Position numbers and translations under genes: made by a program
Shown: positions 33,995-52,860 of the stretch, piece after piece
Numbering within the stretch: position 1 is the stretch's first letter
Layout of the letters: each line of letters opens with the position of its first letter
Notes under the pieces: model-generated
Seen by the model: the letters and a program-made list of their open reading frames with translations, nothing else
What the model was told of the DNA's origin: nothing
Databases searched by the model: none
Origin: Clostridia bacterium
GTDB taxonomy: Bacteria; Bacillota; Clostridia; Oscillospirales; Acutalibacteraceae
DNA: 64,000 bases
NCBI GenBank assembly: GCA_017450005.1
Contig: JAFSYM010000146.1
Span: 2,811-66,810, forward strand
Direction of reading: 5' to 3'

Positions 33995-35148
33995 CAGAAC
34001 ACCTCCTTGCCGGAAACGAATGCGGAATGTATAGTTATCGCATCGTCAAAAGCAATGACGTCCGCGTCGTACCCTTCGGCAAGGACGCCTTTTCGCAATC
34101 CGAGAATATTAGCGGGAACGGCGGTGAGCATCTTCACCGTGTCCGCGAGCGGCACGCCGACTTCCCGCGTGAGCGTGCGCACGAGCGTATCCGGCAGCGC
34201 AATACTGCCGGCGAACGCGCTGCGGTCGGACAGCATGCAGACGCCGTTTTCGATCACAAACGGCGTTTGCGCCATCATGCCGTGCGTGATGTCGGTACCG
34301 GCGGGCGCAAGGCTGTCCGTGACGAGCGCCACATGATCCGTACCTTTGACTTTGAGAACCAGCCGGATCAGCTCCGGCGGCAGATGCTTGCCGTCCGCGA
34401 TGATCTCAACATACAGATCGTCGCGCAGGAACGCGGTCTCAATCACGCCGGGACGGCGGAAACCGTGGTCGCGCGTCACGGTCGACGTGCAGGAATACAG
34501 ATGCGTGACCAGTGTGCAGCCGTTGCTCAGTGCGGGCAGCATCTGCGCGTATGTCGCGTCGGTGTGGCCGGCAGACGGCACAATACCGTTTTGCCGCAAA
34601 AAAGCGCAGAATGTGCCGTCCGGATCCCGTTCGGGCGCGTACGTCCAGCGGATGATCGCACTGCCGCACTCGTACACAAGCGCCGTATAGTCATGAGCAA
34701 CAGGGTCGGTGAGCGCTGCTTCGTTTTGTGCGCCGCACTGCGCGGGGGAGAGATATGGTCCCTCCAGATGCGCGCCGGCGATGTGCGTTTGCAGCTCCGG
34801 CGCAGCCATCGCCGTGCGGATGGATCGCACGGCCTTCGCCATTTCAGAAAAAGGTGCAGCGGAAACGGTGGGACATACACAGGTTGCGCCATGCCGCAAC
34901 AGAAAGTTGCAGCCGCGGACGACGTCCTGCGCCGTACCGGAAAAATCAAATCCGTTTGCGCCGTGCGTGTGCATGTCGATAAAACCGGGGGAAACATATA
35001 ACCCCGTCCGATCATACGTCTTATCATACGGCAGCGATCCGTCTGCCGTGACTGCGGTGATCGTGCCGTCCGAGCAGTAGATATAGCCGCCGCAAATGCC
35101 CTGCGGGGTCAGGATGCGGTCGCTCTGAATCCGAATACGCATTGTCAT
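33994..35148 (-). CDS. nagA: N-acetylglucosamine-6-phosphate deacetylase
   Basis: GFIDMHTHGANGFDF, GAHLEGPYL and ALVTDS motifs. Confidence 0.85.
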   Translation of the reverse strand: MTMRIRIQSDRILTPQGICGGYIYCSDGTITAVTADGSLPYDKTYDRTGLYVSPGFIDMHTHGANGFDFSGTAQDVVRGCNFLLRHGATCVCPTVSAAPFSEMAKAVRSIRTAMAAPELQTHIAGAHLEGPYLSPAQCGAQNEAALTDPVAHDYTALVYECGSAIIRWTYAPERDPDGTFCAFLRQNGIVPSAGHTDATYAQMLPALSNGCTLVTHLYSCTSTVTRDHGFRRPGVIETAFLRDDLYVEIIADGKHLPPELIRLVLKVKGTDHVALVTDSLAPAGTDITHGMMAQTPFVIENGVCMLSDRSAFAGSIALPDTLVRTLTREVGVPLADTVKMLTAVPANILGLRKGVLAEGYDADVIAFDDAITIHSAFVSGKEVF

Positions 35149-35918
35149 CCCTCCGCCGGCAGCAGTCTTGCGCTGTCCGGATCACAGTACAGCACAGCGT
35201 GCGGATGCGTGCGCAACACGGAGGCCGGCACACGTTCGCTGACAGGCTGTGTGAGCGTATCGAAGACAGCCTGCGCTTTTGTCGCCGCCGGCACGGTGCA
35301 GAACATGTGCGCTGCGCGGCAGAGCGCCGGAATCGTCAGCGTCAGCGCGTACTGCGGCACGTCGTCGAGCGTCGAGAAGCAGCCGTCGTGTACCTGCTGC
35401 ATGCGGCAGATCGGATCGAGCCGCACTTTTTTCAGCGTGAGCGGATCGTGAAAGTCGGCGACCGGCGGATCGTTGAACGCAATATGTCCGTTTTCGCCGA
35501 TGCCCAGGCACACGATATCAACCGGATGCGCCTGCAGCAGATGTGTGTACCGCGATACGGTTTGCTCCGGCGTTTCCGATGCATCCTGTATGTAATACAC
35601 GGCGCGGAAGGGGACTTTGTCAAACAGGCGTTCCCGCAGAAAACGTCCGAACGACTGCGGCGCGTCCGATGGGAGACCGATGTACTCGTCCATGTGGAAT
35701 GCGTTGATTTTGTCCCAACGGATATCCGGCTGGACGATCAGCGCCTCGAGCATTTCGTTCTGAGAAGGTGCAGCGGCAAAAATCATATTGATTTCCGCCT
35801 GCCTGTCCTGCAGCGCGCGCACACAGGCCGCGATCTCTTCGGCCGCGCACCGGCCCGTTTCGGCACGCGAGGGCAATACCTTGACACAAAGCTGATCGGC
35901 AAAGAAAACTCTGTTCAC
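35145..35918 (-). CDS. nagB: glucosamine-6-phosphate deaminase
   Basis: NAFHMDEYIGL and CLGIGENGHIAFNDPP motifs. 4-nt overlap with nagA. Confidence 0.8.
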   Translation of the reverse strand: MNRVFFADQLCVKVLPSRAETGRCAAEEIAACVRALQDRQAEINMIFAAAPSQNEMLEALIVQPDIRWDKINAFHMDEYIGLPSDAPQSFGRFLRERLFDKVPFRAVYYIQDASETPEQTVSRYTHLLQAHPVDIVCLGIGENGHIAFNDPPVADFHDPLTLKKVRLDPICRMQQVHDGCFSTLDDVPQYALTLTIPALCRAAHMFCTVPAATKAQAVFDTLTQPVSERVPASVLRTHPHAVLYCDPDSARLLPAEG

Positions 35919-36095
35919 AGCAAAACACTCCCTGCTTTTCTGTTTTTACTCAAACCATTTGCTGTCAATCAGTATAGCATACGGCGTTTCGATATGCAAC
36001 AACGGAATGCAGTGTGCGGAACTTTTTATCGTTTGGTTTTCCAATCAGTTGATTTTTTGGGAATAATATGGTATTGTAATATGGGAGGGATCACA

Positions 36096-39000
36096 ATGAA
36101 ACATACCGGAAAAATCATTGCGGCGCTGCTGGCGCTTCTGATGATCGCGGGCAATTGTCTGCCTGCGTTCGCGGACTACGAAGACGGCATGGATTGCCCC
36201 GAATGCGGCAAATACCATTGGGATGACTGGATCGCGTGCGACGACTGCGGCATGTGTATCGACTGCGCGGCGGACTACACCTGCCCGTATTGCGGCGAGT
36301 GTACCTATTGCGCAGGGGAGCAGTGCGGCCAATGCGGCGCCTGTCCCGACTGCGGCGAGATCATCTGCGGCGAGTGCGGCGAGGCGTGCTTCCAATGTGC
36401 GGATGATTCCGAGTTCTGCATAAACTGCAGCCGGTGCGGCGAATGCAACGGCAACACAGCCTGTCCCGGCTGCTGCGAAAGCTGCGGCGAGTGCGAGGCA
36501 AGGGATTTCTGCAGCGAGTGCTTCTTCTGCGAGGACTGCAGCGGCGGCGTCTGCACCGAGTGCGGCAAGGCGTGCTACAACTGCGCGGACGATGACGAAT
36601 TCTGCCAGGCATGCGGACGCTGCGGCGAATGCAACGGCAACACAGTCTGCCCCGGCTGCCATGAAAACTGCGGCGAGTGCGAATCCAAAGACTTCTGCAG
36701 CGAGTGCTTCTATTGCGAAGACTGCGGCGAAATGATATGCACCGAATGCGGCAAAGCCTGCTTTAACTGCTCAGACGATTCCGAATTTTGCATAAGCTGC
36801 GGCCGCTGCGGCGACTGCAACGGAAATACAACGTGCCCCGGCTGCCGCGAGACCTGCGGCGAATGCAGTACATATTATAATCAATGCGGCCATTGCCTTT
36901 ATTGCGAGAATTGCGTGGATTACATCTGTGAAAACTGCGGAGACACGTGCACCAACTGCGCGGATGAGTCCGAATTCTGCGATAACTGCGGTCTTTGTCC
37001 GGACTGCAACGGCGACACCACCTGTACCTACTGCAGCATGACCTGCGGCGAATGCAATAATTACAATCAGTGTCAGGAATGTTTTGCGTGCGAAAACTGC
37101 ACGATCCTGTGTGACGGCTGCATGGATATCTGCGTCGACTGCGCGTACGGCTGGTGCCAGAGCTGCGGACTCTGCGGCGACTGCAACGGCGGTACCGCGT
37201 GCCCGAACTGCGGCGAAACCTGCATGGAGTGCAACAAATACGGCCAATGCTACGACTGCTATACCTGCGAGCAGTGCACAACGATTTGTGTGGAATGCGG
37301 TGAAAAGTGCATCGACTGTGCGGACAGCTTCTGCACAAACTGCAACACCTGTTCCGACTGCAACGGCGATACCGCCTGCCCGAACTGCGGCAACACCTGC
37401 GCGCTGTGCAAGGCCAATCCCCAGTGCGAGGATTGTCACACCTGCGCCGACTGCGTGCTGCTGTGCAGCAATTGCGGCGAGGTCTGCATGGAATGCGCGG
37501 CGGACGGCTGGTGCTTCGGCTGCGACACATGCGCCGACTGCAACGGCGGCACTGCCTGCCCGGGCTGCGGCGAAAGCTGTCTGGAATGTGAAACCATCAA
37601 TCAGTGTAAATCTTGTCATTACTGCGCCGACTGTGTGACAATCTGCGAAGAATGCGGCGACGTCTGCAGCGAGTGCGCGAGCAGCTTCTGCATGAACTGC
37701 AATACCTGCGGCGACTGCAACGGCGACACGGTCTGCGAGGGCTGCGGCAACACCTGCCTTGCATGCGGCAACATTGACCAGTGCCGCGATTGTTACCTTT
37801 GCGCGAACTGTACGGATATTTGCAGCGGCTGCGGCGAGATCTGCTCCGACTGTGCAGGCGGTTGGTGCGACCACTGCATGACCTGCGGCGACTGCAACGG
37901 CGACACCGTTTGCCCATCCTGCAGCATGACCTGCGAAACATGCGGTAATTTTGAGCAATGCCGCAACTGCTGGAACTGCGCAGAATGCGCTGACATCTGC
38001 GTAAACTGCGGCGACGCCTGCTCGGCGTGCGACGCCGGGTTCAACGAAACATTCCATCTGTGCAGCAACTGTGATGTGAACGATGTACAGGTTTCTATTG
38101 TAATCGACAAGATCGACGCCATCGGCACGGTGGAGTACACCGCCGCGTGCAAGGCGAAGATCGACGCTGCGGCAGCCTACTATAACGCGTTGTCCAAGCA
38201 GCAGCAACAGCAGGTGACCAATTACACCGTGCTTGGTGCAGCGCAAAGAAATTATGCCCGGCTGAAAGAGCAAGCAGATCAGCGCAAGGCAAACACGGTG
38301 GTAAACGGCATCAACAATATCGGTACGGTTACCTACACTGGCGAATGCTATAAGAAAATCGCAATGGGAAGAAAAGCGTACACGCAACTGACAGCCGATC
38401 AGAAAGCGCTTGTGACCAATTATGATGTTCTCGCGGCAGCCGAAGCAGAATATGCCAAGCTGAAAGCGGCCGCAGCCGCAACGGCTGCCGACAAGGCCGC
38501 CGTCGATGCTGTGACGAACAAGATCAACGCCATCGGTACGGTCGCTTACACCGACGCGTGCAAAACGAAGATTGACAAGGCAAGAGGCGCCTATGACGCG
38601 CTGACCGCCAATCAGAAAAAGCTGGTGAACAATTACGCCGCGCTCACGGCAGCCGAGGCACAGTATGCCGCGCTGAAAGCGGCTGCGGAAAAGACTGCCG
38701 CCGACAAGGTCGCCGCAGCTTCTGCAGCGGACAAGATCAACGCCATCGGTACGCCTGCCTATACCGCCGAGAGCAAAGCGAAGATCGACGCGGCAAGAAG
38801 CGCGTATAACGCGCTGACGGCCGATCAGAAAGCGCTCGTGACCAACTACACGAAGCTCACGACAGCCGAAGCGAAATATGCCGCGCTGAAAGCGGCAGAA
38901 GAACAGGCGGCTGCTGAGAAAGCAGCAACAGACGACGCGGTCGCGAAGATCAACGCCATCGGCACTGTGGAATACACCGCCGAATGTAAAGCAAAGATTG

Positions 39001-39869
39001 ACGCGGCAAGAAATGCGTACGACGCGCTGACCGCAGAGCAGAAGAGCCATATTACAAATAATGATTACGCCAAGCTGACGGCGGCCGAAACCAAATACGC
39101 CAATCTGAAGGCCAAAGCAGATCAGGCGGCTGCCGACAAAGCCGCTGCGGACGCGGCGACTGCGAAGATCGACGCCATCGGCACGGTGGAAAACAGCGCT
39201 GAGAGCAAGGCGAAGATCGACGCGGCGCGAACAGCTTACGACACGCTGACCGCGGAGCAGAAAAAGCAGGTGACCAATTACGCGGCGCTGAAAGCTGCAG
39301 AAACAGAATACGCCGAAGTCAAAGCCGCTGCCGAACAGGCGGTTGCCGACAAAGCCGCCGCAGACGCAGTGATCGCAAAGATCGACGCGATCGGCACGGT
39401 CGCGTATACGTCCGCGAGCAAGACGAAGATCAATGATGCGAGAGTCGCATATACGGCGCTGACAGAAGCGGGAAAAGCGCTGGTGACCAATTACGGCACG
39501 CTGACGGCGGCGGAAGATGCATACGCTGCGCTGAAAGCGGTGAATCCCGATCAGCCGAGAGTCGTCCATTCCGTCGCGTTCGGCGAAAACGTCACGCTCC
39601 AATGCAAGAAGAGCGCAGAGCTGCATCCGGATATTCATGCCGACGACGTCGCGAGCTGCAAAATAAGCTATTCCAGCTCCAACGAGAAGGTCGCAACGGT
39701 GGACGAAAACGGCAATGTGTTCGGCGTGAAGCAAGGAACGGCGACCATCACTTGTACCGTGACGGATGAAACAGGTACCGAGATGCCTGCCCAATGTACC
39801 GTCACCGTTAAGTACACATGGTGGCAGTGGCTTATCGTGATCCTGCTGTTTGGCTGGATCTGGTATTAA
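36096..39869 (+). CDS. 1257-aa surface protein: Sec signal, ~626-aa CxxC-only cysteine array, 7 Ala-rich helical repeats, Big_2-like Ig domain, C-terminal TM anchor
   Basis: RBS GGGAGGGA 5 nt before the ATG at 36096. Signal MKHTGKIIAALLALLMIAGNCLPAFA. The track ORF (from 35142) runs open through nagB antisense and is over-extended. C-terminus is WWQWLIVILLFGWIWY-stop. Confidence 0.85.
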   Translation: MKHTGKIIAALLALLMIAGNCLPAFADYEDGMDCPECGKYHWDDWIACDDCGMCIDCAADYTCPYCGECTYCAGEQCGQCGACPDCGEIICGECGEACFQCADDSEFCINCSRCGECNGNTACPGCCESCGECEARDFCSECFFCEDCSGGVCTECGKACYNCADDDEFCQACGRCGECNGNTVCPGCHENCGECESKDFCSECFYCEDCGEMICTECGKACFNCSDDSEFCISCGRCGDCNGNTTCPGCRETCGECSTYYNQCGHCLYCENCVDYICENCGDTCTNCADESEFCDNCGLCPDCNGDTTCTYCSMTCGECNNYNQCQECFACENCTILCDGCMDICVDCAYGWCQSCGLCGDCNGGTACPNCGETCMECNKYGQCYDCYTCEQCTTICVECGEKCIDCADSFCTNCNTCSDCNGDTACPNCGNTCALCKANPQCEDCHTCADCVLLCSNCGEVCMECAADGWCFGCDTCADCNGGTACPGCGESCLECETINQCKSCHYCADCVTICEECGDVCSECASSFCMNCNTCGDCNGDTVCEGCGNTCLACGNIDQCRDCYLCANCTDICSGCGEICSDCAGGWCDHCMTCGDCNGDTVCPSCSMTCETCGNFEQCRNCWNCAECADICVNCGDACSACDAGFNETFHLCSNCDVNDVQVSIVIDKIDAIGTVEYTAACKAKIDAAAAYYNALSKQQQQQVTNYTVLGAAQRNYARLKEQADQRKANTVVNGINNIGTVTYTGECYKKIAMGRKAYTQLTADQKALVTNYDVLAAAEAEYAKLKAAAAATAADKAAVDAVTNKINAIGTVAYTDACKTKIDKARGAYDALTANQKKLVNNYAALTAAEAQYAALKAAAEKTAADKVAAASAADKINAIGTPAYTAESKAKIDAARSAYNALTADQKALVTNYTKLTTAEAKYAALKAAEEQAAAEKAATDDAVAKINAIGTVEYTAECKAKIDAARNAYDALTAEQKSHITNNDYAKLTAAETKYANLKAKADQAAADKAAADAATAKIDAIGTVENSAESKAKIDAARTAYDTLTAEQKKQVTNYAALKAAETEYAEVKAAAEQAVADKAAADAVIAKIDAIGTVAYTSASKTKINDARVAYTALTEAGKALVTNYGTLTAAEDAYAALKAVNPDQPRVVHSVAFGENVTLQCKKSAELHPDIHADDVASCKISYSSSNEKVATVDENGNVFGVKQGTATITCTVTDETGTEMPAQCTVTVKYTWWQWLIVILLFGWIWY
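36195..38072 (+). repeat. in-frame tandem coding repeats: nine 59-62-aa units, each with 16 Cys as eight CxxC pairs, plus partial units at both ends
   Basis: Each unit contains C[GSP][DE]CNG[NDG]T.C; I count nine copies of CNGxT. Early units read C.ECG.AC.NC.DD.EFC..C.RCG.CNGNT.CPGC, and the first two close with FCSECF.CEDC. Later units read C..CG..C..CA..(W/F)C..C..C.DCNG.T.C..C...C..C....QC..C..C..C. Confidence 0.85.
38089..39540 (+). repeat. in-frame tandem coding repeats: seven ~65-70-aa Ala-rich helical units
   Basis: Consensus I[ND]AIGTV.YT..[SC]K.KID.AR.AY.ALT..QK.LVTNY..L..AE..YA.LKA, followed by an Ala/Asp/Lys linker. IGT occurs seven times. Confidence 0.8.
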
Positions 39870-39997: not shown

Positions 39998-40480
39998 CCC
40001 TACGGAAAACGTAACGGCGACGTCGTGTATGGAACGCAACCATGCGTTCCGCCTTTGCGCATTTCCGGCGAGATTGTAGGGGCGGGCATGACCGCCCGAC
40101 AGAGACGAAGTCTCTGCAAAAGCGCAAAAAAACCGCAGGCAAAACCTGAAACGAACGAACAAAAATAACCCGGTGTCATTGCGAGCAAAGCGAAGCAATC
40201 CGTCTCCCCCGAAGAACGTTCAGACAAGAACAGGGACCGCGGGTGTCCGGTGGACACCTCTGCCGCAGGCAGAAGCGCCGACCGAGCCGGCAGGCGAGAC
40301 ACGGATTGCCGCAGTCGCTTCGCTCCTTCGCAATGACAGTTTGTTTTATGTGTTTGCGCCGCCGGGGACGGCATGTTGCAGAACGTCGGCACGATGTGGG
40401 CATCGTCCCCTACGAAAAACGCAACGGCGACGTCGTGTAGGGAACGCATATATGCGTTCCGCCTCTGCGCATTCCCGGCG
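39998..40480. repeat. composite intergenic repeat: two 73-nt direct repeats bracketing a family-2 inverted repeat
   Basis: DR 39998-40070 vs 40408-40480 (66/73 identical), each with the palindrome GGAACGCA....TGCGTTCC. Internal IR GTGTCATTGCGAGCAAAGCGAAGCAATCCGT (40173-40203) pairs with ACGGATTGCC...CGCAATGACA (40302-40339). Confidence 0.6.
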
Positions 40481-49323: not shown

Positions 49324-52300
49324 ATGAAATCCCGACATTTCCGTGCCTTTTTCAGCATATTACTGACGCTGCTGCTTATCACCAACTGCGCAGCATCGGC
49401 CTTCGCTTCGTATGAACCGCTGCCGCAGATTCTGCATTTGGTCAGCGGCGAGACGGACGCGGACGGTGCGGTCTATGCGGACTATCTTGTAGACGAGCAG
49501 GGCAACCGTGTCGAGGAGACGGTTGAGCCGCGCGTGCGTGCGGCGGATTCGCTGCCGAGTAGTTACGACCTGCGCGATTACGGTGTAGTTACGGGCATCA
49601 GGAATCAGGCAGGCGCAGGAAGCTGCTGGGCGTTTGCATCAATCGCATCTCTGGAGTCGAGCTACATCCGTCAGGGCTTCGGTAGCGTATCGAATACCGA
49701 TTATTCCGAGGCGCATCTGGTCTGGTTTTCGCAGCGGCAGCGTACAACAAACGCGGCGGACCCGACATACGGCGACGGCAAGAATTGTGCTCTGCCGTTT
49801 ACAACGGGCGGGAACTGGAACGGCGTCGCCTCGCAGCTTATGCGCGGCAGCGGTCTGGAGCTTGAGTCAAATGCGCCATGGATTGCGACATACGATGAAG
49901 ATGAAATGATGCAGATGGAGCAGCAGGAATCTTCCCGATACGATTGCTATGCGCGCATGTGGAGCGTGGTCAGCATCCGCGACAACTCCGCAACCGCGCT
50001 CAAGCAGAAGATCATGCAGAACGGTGCGGCCATGTTCTCCTATTATGACGATTACAGCACCACACGCACCGGCTACAATGCGTCCAAAACCGCCTACTAT
50101 CAGACAGCCAAGGTCGGCGTGACAAACCACGCCGTGGCCGTGGTCGGCTGGGACGACAACTACTCACGCACCAATTTCAACGTAAGTCCCCGCCCGAGTG
50201 CAAACGGCGCATGGCTGGTCAAGGGAAGCTGGAGCAGCGCATGGGGCAACGGCGGATACTACTGGATCTCTTATGAAGATCCGTCGATCGGTTCGTTTGT
50301 GTCCTATGTAGCAGCCAAAAAAGATGTTTATGATAAGATTTACCAGTACGACGGCTCCTATCCGCGCACCTATTTCACACTGTCCAACAGCGCCAGGATG
50401 GCCAATGTTTTTACAGCCGAATCGGAGGAGATGCTCACGCACGTTGCGTTCTATACGCCAAACGCGACGCCCGTCAAGGCGACAGTCGACGTCTACACGG
50501 CCGGTACAAGCTATACCGGCCCGAGTACAAAAAGTCCGATCATCGGTATGGACAAGGTGACAAGCGCCACCACCACGCTCTCGTCCGTCGAATACGGCTA
50601 CACCACCGTCGAGCTCAAAAACCCGGTACATCTGCAAATGTGGCAGCCGTTTACGGTGGTCGTCACGTTCGAGGGCAGCAGCGTGATGATCCCTGTGGAG
50701 GGCGAAACCGTCGCCAATCCCGCCGACGGCCAGACGACCTATGACGGCGGCATGGGCGAGAGCTACTTCGGCTACAGCAACTACTGGTTCGATACAAACA
50801 GCTATGCGGACGGCAAGGATTACAACAACGTTCCGGTCAAGGCGATGACGCGGGAAATCGTGCCGGCCGAACCGACGCTTTCGGTGCAGACCATGCCGAA
50901 CCGGACGGTTTACCGTTACGGGGAGTCGCTCGATTTTACCGGCCTGAAGCTGCTCTACACCGACGAATACGGTGCGGAGTCGACCGTCACGAGCGGCTAT
51001 ACCTGCGACGCGCAGACAGCGCAGACGCTCGGTACGCAGACTGTGACGGTGCAGTACGGCGGCGCGAGCGCAACGTTCAATGTGACGGTGCAGCCGTGGG
51101 ATCGCTCACTGACAATCTCATCTTTGCCGAGCAAGCTCTCCTATTATTACGGCGAAACGCTTGACCTGACCGGGCTGTCGCTTCTGTACAGCGACGAGTA
51201 CGGCACGCAGACCACGCTGACAGATTCGTTTGTCTGCGATACGCAGCAGATTCGCACGATCGGCTCACAGCCGGTCACGGTCTCCTACGGCGATCTGTAC
51301 GTGACGTTCAGCGTGACCGGCATGCCCAGAGAACGCACGCTGACGATCGAATCGCTGCCGGATAAGCTCTCTTACCGCTACGGCGAAACGCTGGATCTGA
51401 CCGGACTGTCACTTGCGTACAGCGACGAATACGGCGTTGTGACGTCGATGAGCGGCGGATTTGCCTGCGATGTGACGACGCTGCAGACGCTCGGCACACA
51501 GTCCGTGACGCTGACGTACGACGGTTTGTCCGTGACGTTTGATGTGTCCGTGCAGCCGTGGGAGCGCACGCTGACGATCGCCTCGCCCCCGGACACAAAC
51601 GAATTCCTTTACGGTGAGCCGATCGACCTTGCCGGACTGACGCTGCTGTACACAGACGAATACGGCGTCGGAACGACTCTGACGGACGGCTTTGACTGCG
51701 ACGCGCAGATCATACAGACCATCGGCGCGCAGACCGTAACGCTATCCTACGCCGGCTTGTCCGTGTCACTTGAGGTGACCGGCCTCGCGTGGGAGCGCAC
51801 GCTGACGGTCGAAAATCTGCCGACGAAGGTGGATTATCTGTACGGCGAGCCGCTTGACCTGAGCGGTCTTGTGCTGCGTTACCGGGACGAATACGGACAG
51901 GAAACCACGCTGACGCAGGGCTTTGTCTATGAAACGCAGACGGTCAGCACGCTGGGCGTGCAGTCGGTAACCGTCTGGTACGGCGATCTGTCCGTGACGT
52001 TCAACGTGACCGGTCTGCCGCGCGAACGCACGCTTTCCGTATACACGCCGCCGGAGAAGACGGACTACTTCATCGGCGAGGGCTTTTCGGCAACGGGGTT
52101 GTCGCTGCAGTATACGGATGAATACGGCGACGCGCTGATCGTGACGGAAGGCTTCTCCTTTACGTCCGAACCGTTCACACAGACCGGCCTGCATACTGTG
52201 GAGGTTTACTACGGCGACATGAGCGTGTCGGTCGAGATCAACGTGCACAGGAAGGGATTGATGCTGGTCGGCGAGGGCACGGCGCATCCCGGGCAGACGG

Positions 52301-52860
52301 TTCGCATCCCGGTACAGATTGCAGAAAACCCCGGTATTGTTGCGATGATGCTGCATCTGACGTACGATCCCGATGTGCTGGAGCTGCAGGATGTTGAAAA
52401 CGGCGAGATCTTCGATGACGCGTCCTTCACCCCCGGCGGATCAACGGGCGATATGCCGTATACGGCGCTCTGGGTGAGCGCGAATGCCCATGAGTCGAAT
52501 GCGCAAAGCGGCGTGCTGATCACGTATGTCTTCCGCGTGCGCACGGACGCGCCGATCGGCAGTACAGAGATTTCTGTCAGTTACGATCCGGAATCCACGT
52601 TTGACGTGAATCTGAAAAACGCGGCCTTCGACGCGCGCGCCGGTGTGACGACGGTGGAGCGCGTGCCCGGCGACGTCAACGCCGACGGGGCGATTACGCT
52701 GCTGGACACTGTCATGCTGCGCCGGTTCCTGGCCGGATGGGCGGTGACGATCAATAAGGGCAATGCCGATGTGGACGCGGACGATGCACCGACGCTCAAG
52801 GATTGTGTGCGTATCACGCGCTATCTTGCGGGCGGATATGACAATGTAGAATTACTGTAA
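49324..52860 (+). CDS. secreted papain-family (C1) cysteine peptidase with beta-sandwich domain, six Big_3-like Ig repeats, cohesin-like domain and type-I-like dockerin
   Basis: Signal peptide. QAGAGSCWAFAS (Cys codon 49624-49626), NHAVAVVGWDD and GSWSSAWGNGGYYWISY. Six Y[TSR]DEYG-containing ~76-aa repeats (50869-52248). Cohesin-like 52249-52655. Dockerin GDVNADGAITLLD...DVDADDAPTLKD (52666-52857). Confidence 0.85.
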   Translation: MKSRHFRAFFSILLTLLLITNCAASAFASYEPLPQILHLVSGETDADGAVYADYLVDEQGNRVEETVEPRVRAADSLPSSYDLRDYGVVTGIRNQAGAGSCWAFASIASLESSYIRQGFGSVSNTDYSEAHLVWFSQRQRTTNAADPTYGDGKNCALPFTTGGNWNGVASQLMRGSGLELESNAPWIATYDEDEMMQMEQQESSRYDCYARMWSVVSIRDNSATALKQKIMQNGAAMFSYYDDYSTTRTGYNASKTAYYQTAKVGVTNHAVAVVGWDDNYSRTNFNVSPRPSANGAWLVKGSWSSAWGNGGYYWISYEDPSIGSFVSYVAAKKDVYDKIYQYDGSYPRTYFTLSNSARMANVFTAESEEMLTHVAFYTPNATPVKATVDVYTAGTSYTGPSTKSPIIGMDKVTSATTTLSSVEYGYTTVELKNPVHLQMWQPFTVVVTFEGSSVMIPVEGETVANPADGQTTYDGGMGESYFGYSNYWFDTNSYADGKDYNNVPVKAMTREIVPAEPTLSVQTMPNRTVYRYGESLDFTGLKLLYTDEYGAESTVTSGYTCDAQTAQTLGTQTVTVQYGGASATFNVTVQPWDRSLTISSLPSKLSYYYGETLDLTGLSLLYSDEYGTQTTLTDSFVCDTQQIRTIGSQPVTVSYGDLYVTFSVTGMPRERTLTIESLPDKLSYRYGETLDLTGLSLAYSDEYGVVTSMSGGFACDVTTLQTLGTQSVTLTYDGLSVTFDVSVQPWERTLTIASPPDTNEFLYGEPIDLAGLTLLYTDEYGVGTTLTDGFDCDAQIIQTIGAQTVTLSYAGLSVSLEVTGLAWERTLTVENLPTKVDYLYGEPLDLSGLVLRYRDEYGQETTLTQGFVYETQTVSTLGVQSVTVWYGDLSVTFNVTGLPRERTLSVYTPPEKTDYFIGEGFSATGLSLQYTDEYGDALIVTEGFSFTSEPFTQTGLHTVEVYYGDMSVSVEINVHRKGLMLVGEGTAHPGQTVRIPVQIAENPGIVAMMLHLTYDPDVLELQDVENGEIFDDASFTPGGSTGDMPYTALWVSANAHESNAQSGVLITYVFRVRTDAPIGSTEISVSYDPESTFDVNLKNAAFDARAGVTTVERVPGDVNADGAITLLDTVMLRRFLAGWAVTINKGNADVDADDAPTLKDCVRITRYLAGGYDNVELL

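Follow-up and report, generated by a model that had tools for sequence, protein, structure and literature searches.

A CxxC-array surface protein of an uncultured gut Clostridia bacterium, probably cross-linked by metal

Described cysteine-rich proteins and the CxxC array

Ectodomains dominated by CXXC cysteine pairs are known from gut protists, where the variant surface proteins (VSPs) of Giardia and related proteins such as the HCMPs and the Igl protein of Entamoeba each combine such an ectodomain with a signal peptide and a C-terminal membrane anchor. VSPs are further defined by a GGCY motif and by a conserved CRGKA tail past the transmembrane segment. A protein of similar layout is encoded in the window analysed here, a 64,000-nt stretch of DNA from Clostridia bacterium (assembly GCA_017450005.1, contig JAFSYM010000146.1, positions 2,811-66,810, forward strand). 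Its 1257 amino acids (aa) include 104 CxxC motifs in an ectodomain led by a Sec signal and followed by a hydrophobic C-terminal tail, and its host, an uncultured Acutalibacteraceae-like gut anaerobe, shares with the protists a protease-rich, low-oxygen habitat. The cysteines form an array at aa 34-659 that represents a small, undescribed repeat-domain family outside the coverage of Pfam, NCBIfam and the PDB, and the evidence leans towards cross-linking of this array by metal rather than by disulfides.

The resemblance to VSPs is one of layout. Cysteine density in the array (26%) is about twice that of VSPs, all of its cysteines lie in CxxC, and their spacing is strictly periodic (2,3,2 / 2,2,2). 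The protein is bacterial, has no detectable sequence relationship to VSPs, and is conserved in a way unlike a variant antigen. An earlier, sequence-only reading of this DNA had offered the Giardia proteins as the nearest analogy; the comparison stands for the layout and fails as homology. VSPs are reported to withstand proteolysis and extremes of pH and temperature (PMC6341118).

Several other described systems share particular features with the array. Zinc knuckles (Gag CX2CX4HX4C; LIM junction HX2CX2CX2C) also pair a CxxC knuckle with a short helical turn and use about 14-15 residues per site, and successive sites in the array may lie two residues apart, as in LIM. These modules are intracellular and mostly basic, bind nucleic acids or proteins, and have loops of 4-23 residues, whereas the array is extracellular and strongly acidic, with loops of 2-6 residues and about 41 proposed sites without interruption. 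Rubredoxins and zinc ribbons share the CPxCG/CxxCG knuckle motif, which occurs six times as CPxCG and 32 times as CxxCG among the 104 CxxC. This motif is all that they share: in rubredoxins and zinc ribbons the two knuckles lie more than 10-25 residues apart, with a small beta-sheet formed by the residues between them, while the pairs of the array are 2-6 residues apart and have no match to these families in Pfam. Metallothioneins and Csp proteins are similar in their very high cysteine content and thiolate-only coordination chemistry. Metallothioneins, in contrast, are small proteins, defined as under 100 aa with a mix of CxC, CC and CxxC and no aromatic residues, and Csp proteins are four-helix bundles; the array has 626 residues, no CxC, a single CC, 42 aromatic residues and almost no predicted helix. 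Finally, CxxCxxC runs are shared with 2x[4Fe-4S] ferredoxins and polyferredoxins, but the fourth ferredoxin ligand follows as x3-CP, whereas the array has x2 and then x3-5 before CP. Ferredoxins are also cytoplasmic or Tat-exported, and the array protein carries a Sec-type signal.

Database searches were negative for the array. Pfam and NCBIfam, searched with the whole protein and with fragments at permissive thresholds, returned nothing for it; sequence searches of the PDB, with a single sequence or a profile, gave matches at a compositional level only; and Foldseek, run with an AlphaFold2 (AF2) model of the array against the PDB and BFVD, found nothing at E <= 0.001. With no significant match in any of these resources, homology of the array to ferredoxins, to zinc ribbons or to the VSPs of Giardia is rejected. 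Most of the neighbours below threshold belong to zinc modules (RING, PHD, LIM, FYVE and CCHC), the best cross-brace values being E = 0.025 for the TRIM21 RING (phmmer), E = 0.042 for LIM (profile), and E >= 4 with TM <= 0.17 in Foldseek, so that no significant sequence or structure match to LIM, RING or PHD was obtained. The PDB profile search also gave weak matches to the copper-storage protein Csp3 (E = 0.017-8), to ferredoxin II (E = 0.047) and to a disulfide-rich eggshell protein; the zinc modules score in this same range, which places them at the level of compositional noise. DUF326 likewise stayed below threshold (E = 0.029) and, together with Csp3, heads the non-significant profile matches; no Pfam match to EGF, furin-like or TNFR domains was seen. 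A literature search found no description of bacterial CxxC arrays of this kind.

The cysteine scaffold and its family

The array contains 165 cysteines in 626 residues, and every one of them (165/165, 100%) has a partner at i+3 or i-3. This agrees with the sequence-only reading, which had placed all cysteines between 36195 and 38072 in CxxC pairs; the two positions are the first base of the Cys34 codon and the final base of the Cys659 codon. Gaps of x2 number 104; in 2000 shuffles that preserve composition they averaged 23.5 and never exceeded 37. The single CC involves C127, an extra cysteine outside the scaffold, where relatives have R, T or H. In aerobic Firmicutes, exported proteins are reported to exclude cysteine (PMC2823432), and secreted proteins elsewhere in the window contain 0.8-4.1%; 165 spaced cysteines are a striking exception to this pattern.

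Read from its N-terminus, the array begins with a lone CPECG pair and a 10-residue loop, continues through forty four-Cys groups, and closes with a second 10-residue loop and a lone terminal CxxC. The four-Cys groups alternate between C-x2-C-x3-C-x2-C and C-x2-C-x2-C-x2-C with linkers of 3-6 residues; the repeating block, about 30 residues long, is a half-unit with 8 Cys (CxxC-G-xx-CxxC, linker, CxxCxxCxxC, linker). A hidden Markov model (HMM) built from five units detected eleven, of which two are degenerate. The nine regular units are 59-63 aa long, start at aa 117, 179, 241, 304, 363, 422, 482, 541 and 600, and hold 16 cysteines in seven cases, 17 in the first and 15 in the last. In the N-terminal cap, the lone pair and its loop (KYHWDDWIA) are followed by five four-Cys groups, and the motif D/E-C-P-x-C-G-x-[YW]-x-W-D-[DE]-[WY] is kept in relatives P0001-P0005, P0075, L003 and L006. 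The typical unit and cysteine spacing proposed from the sequence are found at aa 398-456, and the proposed division into two subtypes also holds: units 1-3 (62-63 aa) share ADDxEFC, while units 4-9 (59-60 aa) have W/F-C and Q-C. For units 4-8 the consensus is C-NG-x-T-x-CPxCGxTCxxC-x5-CxxCxxCxxC-x3-CxxCGxxCxxC-x4/5-CxxCxxCxD. In unit 9, scaffold cysteines 14 and 15 are jointly replaced (…CSACDAGFNETFHLCSNC), leaving the lone CxxC past the second 10-residue loop, and the same joint loss occurs in the terminal unit of all 11 subfamily sequences.

Judged from their divergence, the units are old. Identity between units is 59-69% at the nucleotide level and 18-49% for non-Cys amino acids, and most of them thus fit the old divergence proposed earlier. 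Units 1 and 2 do not: they stand apart at 80% nucleotide and 67% non-Cys identity, and recent tandem amplification holds for this pair only. The sole array detected by TRF lies in the region of units 1-3 (period 186 bp, 2.8 copies, 77% matches).

Relatives were collected by a word-indexed search, which gave 74 clusters, by an exhaustive HMMER scan, which gave 32 of 1.84 billion representatives, and by a profile word-index search, which added nine fragments and nothing else. The named relatives are metagenome-assembled genomes (MAGs) of Clostridia, Firmicutes or Eubacteriales. An identical 1257-aa product is called on six public metagenome contigs, orthologues with 52-62% identity occur in Acutalibacteraceae/Clostridia MAGs, and the nearest genomic loci are in such MAGs from goat and roe-deer hindgut. 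Family members contain 23-29% Cys across 160-780 residues, with 85-100% of the cysteines in CxxC. Unit number varies in orthologues from about 2.5 (P0005) to 11, and in L006 units of a different subtype are inserted. The window carries one copy of the array gene. In one Eubacteriales MAG, two CxxC-array genes adjoin each other (L044, 6580-7900 and 8001-9493), indicating that the family can occur as tandem paralogues.

The scaffold is strongly conserved. In an alignment of 85 distinct units, all 16 Cys columns hold cysteine in nearly every unit that covers them; apart from a few single losses, substitutions occur only in the cap units at the N- and C-terminus. Conservation of the spacing across homologues had been set beforehand as a check on the sequence-only reading, and the scaffold was indeed kept at about 30% non-Cys identity: 94-99% of cysteines are retained in homologues with non-Cys identity of 29-38%, a retention figure somewhat inflated because cysteines guide the alignment. 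The fixed spacing is accompanied by conserved non-Cys residues (NGxT, P, G, Q, I/L and W/F), and distant members have a conserved His beside Cys (K-H-C-P-x-C and C-L-E-C-H; caps CYxExHC and GCxHGxC). Units also keep their individuality between orthologues. In orthologue comparisons, non-Cys identity is 58-75% in the array and 56-65% in the stalk and Ig domain that follow it; conservation no lower than in the rest of the protein points to ordinary purifying selection, unlike that of a variant antigen.

Evidence on the location of the array came from the domains with which it is combined. In every full-length sequence read, the array directly follows the signal peptide, and across the family it occurs with SLH, CW_binding_2, LPXTG, dockerin, Flg_new, He_PIG and transmembrane tails. 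A position next to the signal peptide with varied anchors behind it suggests a distal cell-surface module, and this mix of anchors is the best evidence available for surface display, which the sequence-only reading had also proposed. Within the window protein, the order of signal peptide, array, stalk, Ig domain and C-terminal tail would make the array the part furthest from the membrane. Relatives P0006, P0010, P0057, P0092 and others carry a second Cys/His repeat behind the array, in tandem modules of about 60-70 aa (H-x-H/W…H-W-x-x-C-x-C-G…T-E-G/T-D-G-S…H-K-E-C-x-x-C-G), for which the precomputed lists hold no Pfam annotation.

Metal, disulfides and other uses of the cysteines

The composition of the array limits how it can fold. 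Its 626 residues include 50 aliphatic, 42 aromatic, 106 acidic (D+E) and 15 basic (K+R) residues. This is the low hydrophobic content noted earlier, and it leaves no possibility of a fold around a hydrophobic core, so that the invariant cysteines must supply the cross-links, through either metal or disulfides. Metal is the cross-link that we favour, with modest confidence. In the mechanism proposed, the chain would fold after Sec export around metal ions, most likely Zn2+ and possibly Fe2+, to form about 41 consecutive tetrathiolate mini-knuckles (Cys4, occasionally Cys3-Asp/His/Glu) of about 15 residues each. The resulting cross-linked rod or head would be rigid and very acidic, would lack a hydrophobic core and would resist gut proteases; the helical-repeat stalk and the Ig domain would hold it away from the membrane anchor. 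The protease-proof coat suggested by the sequence-only reading is plausible.

Several lines of evidence favour metal sites. First, CPxCG/CxxCG knuckles of rubredoxin type recur along the array. Second, AF2 prediction of aa 304-540 (pLDDT 72.7) gave a secondary-structure pattern that recurs in each unit, with single beta-bridge residues just before Cys 1 and Cys 3 of each four-Cys group and with the second pair of the CPxCGxxCxxC group lying in a helical turn of 4 residues. A bridge followed by a helical turn is the layout of the Gag knuckle or rubredoxin-type turn, and its periodic prediction supports metal sites. Third, scaffold cysteines are lost singly and mostly to alternative metal ligands. 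In five of eight well-aligned losses the replacement is Asp, Glu or His, and each of these five affects the fourth Cys of CxxCxxCxxC (three times in P0004 and once each in P0094 and P0083); against a background of about 25% D+E+H this gives a binomial p of ~0.03 (n = 8), and each such change from a TGY codon requires 2-3 nucleotide substitutions. Fourth, an obligate all-disulfide fold predicts a bias towards even numbers of cysteines, which is a signature of disulfide systems (Daniels et al., PMC2823432), and no such bias is seen, the array count being even in 16 of 31 non-redundant members. The conserved His adjoining Cys in distant members, the strictly anaerobic hosts in a reducing gut and the preponderance of zinc modules among the weak, non-significant structural and sequence neighbours also count towards metal.

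Other observations weigh against metal sites. The AF2 confidence is moderate, and two of the five models fall to pLDDT 35, while the zinc-module matches in Foldseek and HMMER (E >= 0.017-4) do not rise above compositional noise. About 41 Zn(Cys)4 sites would add a charge of about -82 to a segment that already has 106 D+E and 15 K+R, a burden unusual for zinc fingers, and to our knowledge loops of 2-6 residues are shorter than those of any zinc ribbon or LIM finger. The cysteine count is a multiple of four in only 5 of 31 members, and the relative P0005 has 21 pairs, so that perfect Cys4 tiling fails in places. The substitution test rests on a small number (n = 8), and the position preceding the replaced cysteine is often acidic already. 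Finally, extracellular Cys-rich repeats elsewhere are usually disulfide-bonded.

The register of the proposed sites can be drawn in two ways. The AF2 secondary structure suggests an in-group register, with one site per four-Cys group, as the sequence-only reading had assumed. In a staggered register each group would instead be a LIM-like junction between sites, which would suit the lone pair found at either end and the fact that cysteines 14 and 15 are lost jointly. P0005, with its 21 pairs, matches neither perfectly.

The strongest alternative, although we judge it unlikely, is a ladder of about 82 intrachain disulfides between neighbouring CxxC rungs, formed without metal as in protozoan CXXC or EGF/furin-like proteins. 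The array is extracellular, the scaffold count in the window protein is even (164 plus one extra Cys), every terminal unit lacks both scaffold cysteine 14 and scaffold cysteine 15, and the disulfide-rich eggshell protein equals the zinc modules in the PDB profile search, all of which are consistent with such a ladder. In addition, some Clostridia encode DsbA/VKOR enzymes (PMC12453122). No thiol-disulfide oxidoreductase adjoins the gene in the window or in five homologous loci, however; the sole thioredoxin-fold match there is a 117-aa glutaredoxin/ArsC of cytoplasmic type, three genes downstream in L044. The ruminant hindgut, where these strictly anaerobic hosts live, is a reducing environment that offers no obvious oxidant for the 82 disulfides of each chain. 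The single losses to D, E or H, the lack of an even-number bias across the family, and the CPxCG/CxxCG knuckles and conserved His also argue against disulfides.

An improbable alternative is that the array is a surface sponge for metals or electrophiles, a metallothionein-like sink for Zn, Cu, Cd, Fe or oxidants and not primarily a structural scaffold. A cysteine content of 26% is comparable to that of metallothioneins, and a sponge would also agree with the very acidic composition, with the distal place of the module on the cell surface and with the weak Csp3 and DUF326 matches. A defined structure nevertheless fits better than a loose chelator, given the strictly fixed spacing with its conserved non-Cys residues, the individuality that units keep between orthologues and the periodic AF2 prediction. 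The lack of CxC and the single CC also count against a sponge, as does the lack of an adjoining metal transporter or resistance gene.

Still less probable is an extracellular redox wire, in which closely spaced rubredoxin-type Fe or Fe-S centres would form a path along the rod for electrons passing to or from O2 or acceptors outside the cell. About 41 potential Cys4 sites, one every 15 residues or so, CPxCG knuckles of the kind found in rubredoxin, the weak match to ferredoxin II and the solubility of Fe2+ in anoxic gut contents are compatible with this idea, which the sequence-only reading had raised; beyond spacing, it found no support. The Fe-S motif CxxCxxCxxxCP is absent, and Fer4 was matched by 1 of 24 array fragments at E = 0.1, below threshold. 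The protein is exported by Sec to the cell exterior, where cofactor machinery is lacking, and a pre-assembled Fe-S cofactor is unlikely, as had been argued from the type of signal. Thiolates would bind Zn2+ in preference to Fe2+. Nearby genes encode no redox partner in the membrane, and the all-helical stalk and the Ig domain, lacking cofactor sites, would offer no electron path to the cell. CxxCH occurs three times among the 104 CxxC, is not conserved and is absent from the relative P0001, so that a multihaem c-type cytochrome was rejected. Also improbable is a self-assembling "thiolate wire" or redox buffer made of about 40 rubredoxin-like Fe(Cys)4 or mixed Fe/Zn centres set close together. 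On the surface of a Gram-positive gut anaerobe it would be a cofactor architecture without known precedent, acting either in electron exchange with partners outside the cell or in the interception of oxygen or oxidants.

That the array is a bacterial homologue of protozoan VSPs serving antigenic variation is the least probable reading, its homology being largely refuted: the outline layout, the gut habitat and the varying number and type of units (2.5-11, with foreign types in L006) agree with it, but the VSP profile PF03302 has no match at E <= 1 in the whole protein or at E <= 10 in 24 array fragments, GGCY and a CRGKA tail are absent from the window protein (which ends in VKYTWWQWLIVILLFGWIWY), none of the sequences read after the exhaustive scan looks eukaryotic and the full-length ones all open with a signal peptide of bacterial type, only one copy lies in the window, and the non-Cys residues of the array are conserved as much as the rest of the protein. 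A RiPP or radical-SAM substrate was also considered and rejected, there being no maturase near the gene and the protein being a 1257-aa Sec substrate.

Were the array cross-linked by metal, as we favour, no denser run of structural metal sites would be known, and chemistry like that of zinc fingers would have one of its rare examples in an extracellular setting. Bacteria would then also have evolved, independently, their own counterpart to the CXXC coats of Entamoeba and Giardia, which would suggest a general solution for stable surface proteins in an anoxic, protease-rich gut. The organism secretes papain-like and subtilisin-like proteases, and with these and many others around it, protease resistance would be a reasonable selective force. 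A stable outer module that resists proteases and sits on a stalk, possibly as a shield, a spacer or an adhesin, would be in keeping with the distal place of the array, its strong negative charge, its dense cross-linking and the individuality that its units conserve. P0005, a minimal natural version of about 165 residues, is a tractable construct, and the scaffold could serve protease-resistant display.

The remainder of the protein and the surrounding DNA

The features of the gene and protein are collected in Table 1. The open reading frame was listed as 35142-39869, and the real start is taken as the ATG that is preceded by the ribosome-binding site. The promoter remains a candidate since sites of its score are no more frequent in the region than in shuffled sequence. 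The signal peptide has no RR, and cleavage probably falls between AFA and DY, which matches the earlier assignment to Sec rather than Tat and rules out a Tat substrate. A lipoprotein was also rejected: Cys21 lies outside any lipobox and is not conserved in orthologues, being absent from P0075.

Table 1. Positions in the window of the array gene and the features of its product
Feature	Position	Strand	Basis
Candidate weak sigma-70-like promoter, TTTCCA-18-AATAAT	36038..36067	+	scores 9/12
Ribosome-binding site GGGAGGG, 6 nt 5' of ATG	36083..36089	+	sequence reading
Coding sequence, 1257-aa surface protein	36096..39869 (including stop)	+	open reading frame
Sec-type signal peptide, aa 1-27, MKHTGKIIAALLALLMIAGNCLPAFA followed by DY	36096..36176	+	AxA cleavage motif, no twin arginine
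N-terminal cap and two degenerate units, aa 34-116	36195..36443	+	sequence reading, unit HMM
Units 1-3, aa 117-303, ADDxEFC subtype, 62-63 aa; extra Cys127 in unit 1	36444..37004	+	
Units 4-8, aa 304-599, subtype of 59-60 aa	37005..37892	+	unit alignment, HMM
Unit 9 and C-terminal cap, aa 600-659	37893..38072	+	unit alignment
Seven helical repeats of about 66-73 aa each, aa 666-1158	38091..39569	+	
Big_2 Ig-like domain, aa 1163-1225	39582..39770	+	Pfam PF02368, E = 6.6e-10
Hydrophobic C-terminal tail VKYTWWQWLIVILLFGWIWY, aa 1238-1257, presumed membrane anchor or sorting signal	39807..39866	+	

The helical repeats behind the array have the consensus I-x-A-I-G-T-V-x-Y-T…K-I-D-A-A-R-x-A-Y-x-A-L-T…Q-K-x-L-V-x-N-Y…A-E-x-x-Y. 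AF2 prediction of two of them gave a pLDDT of 97.3 with a 36-residue helix spanning the repeat boundary, and on this model the repeats, about 71 aa each, probably form a rod-like, spectrin-like stalk; they have no significant match in Pfam, NCBIfam or the PDB. Spectrin repeats score at E > 1. The same repeats occur in P0005 and P0075. The Big_2 domain, in the C-terminal part outside the array, scores 39.2 bits against a cutoff of 22.8.

The C-terminal tail is found far beyond the array family. Its near-invariant form, VKYTWWQW[IL][IL]x[IL]xLFGW[IL]WY-stop, closes no fewer than 30 proteins that are otherwise unrelated, encoded in Acutalibacteraceae, Oscillospiraceae and Clostridia MAGs with as many as about eight in a single MAG, and it usually follows an Ig-like domain. 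These open reading stretches run for 115-1683 aa to the stop, some being cut by contig ends, and contain 0-6% Cys; outside the window the tail lies at the 3' ends of the matches in L003, L006 and L009-L041. A near-invariant tail on unrelated proteins behaves as a shared anchor or sorting signal, and from its distribution it looks like an undescribed one. Pfam returned nothing for it, NCBIfam holds no model, and a literature search on the WWQW tail found nothing relevant.

The neighbours of the array gene are nagA, nagB and a GFO-family oxidoreductase on the other strand, a Na:Ala symporter and desulfoferrodoxin; being on other strands or unrelated, they were rejected as operon partners. Distant members of the family have a conserved same-strand neighbourhood (L042, 2541-3260; L043, 5601-6993; L045, 4115-5926; L047, 5433-6269; L048, 779-1636), in which 4 of 5 genomic contexts include a zinc-ribbon protein of DUF4428 (PF14471); DUF6935 is often found as well, along with a 126-127-aa receiver-like protein just upstream and several lipoproteins. 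This neighbourhood is absent from the window and from L003-L006, and a literature search on DUF4428 in the context of the array family found nothing relevant.

Downstream of the gene, a 73-nt intergenic direct repeat occurs at 39998-40070 and 40408-40480 (89% identical), with a palindrome, GGAACGCA…TGCGTTCC, in each copy; a 149-aa open reading frame is called in this region in one public record and not in another. Further along, 49324-52860 encodes a secreted 1178-aa protein with a papain-family protease, a lectin-like domain, five Big_3 domains, a cohesin and a dockerin, and the last two indicate that the organism has cellulosome-type assembly modules.

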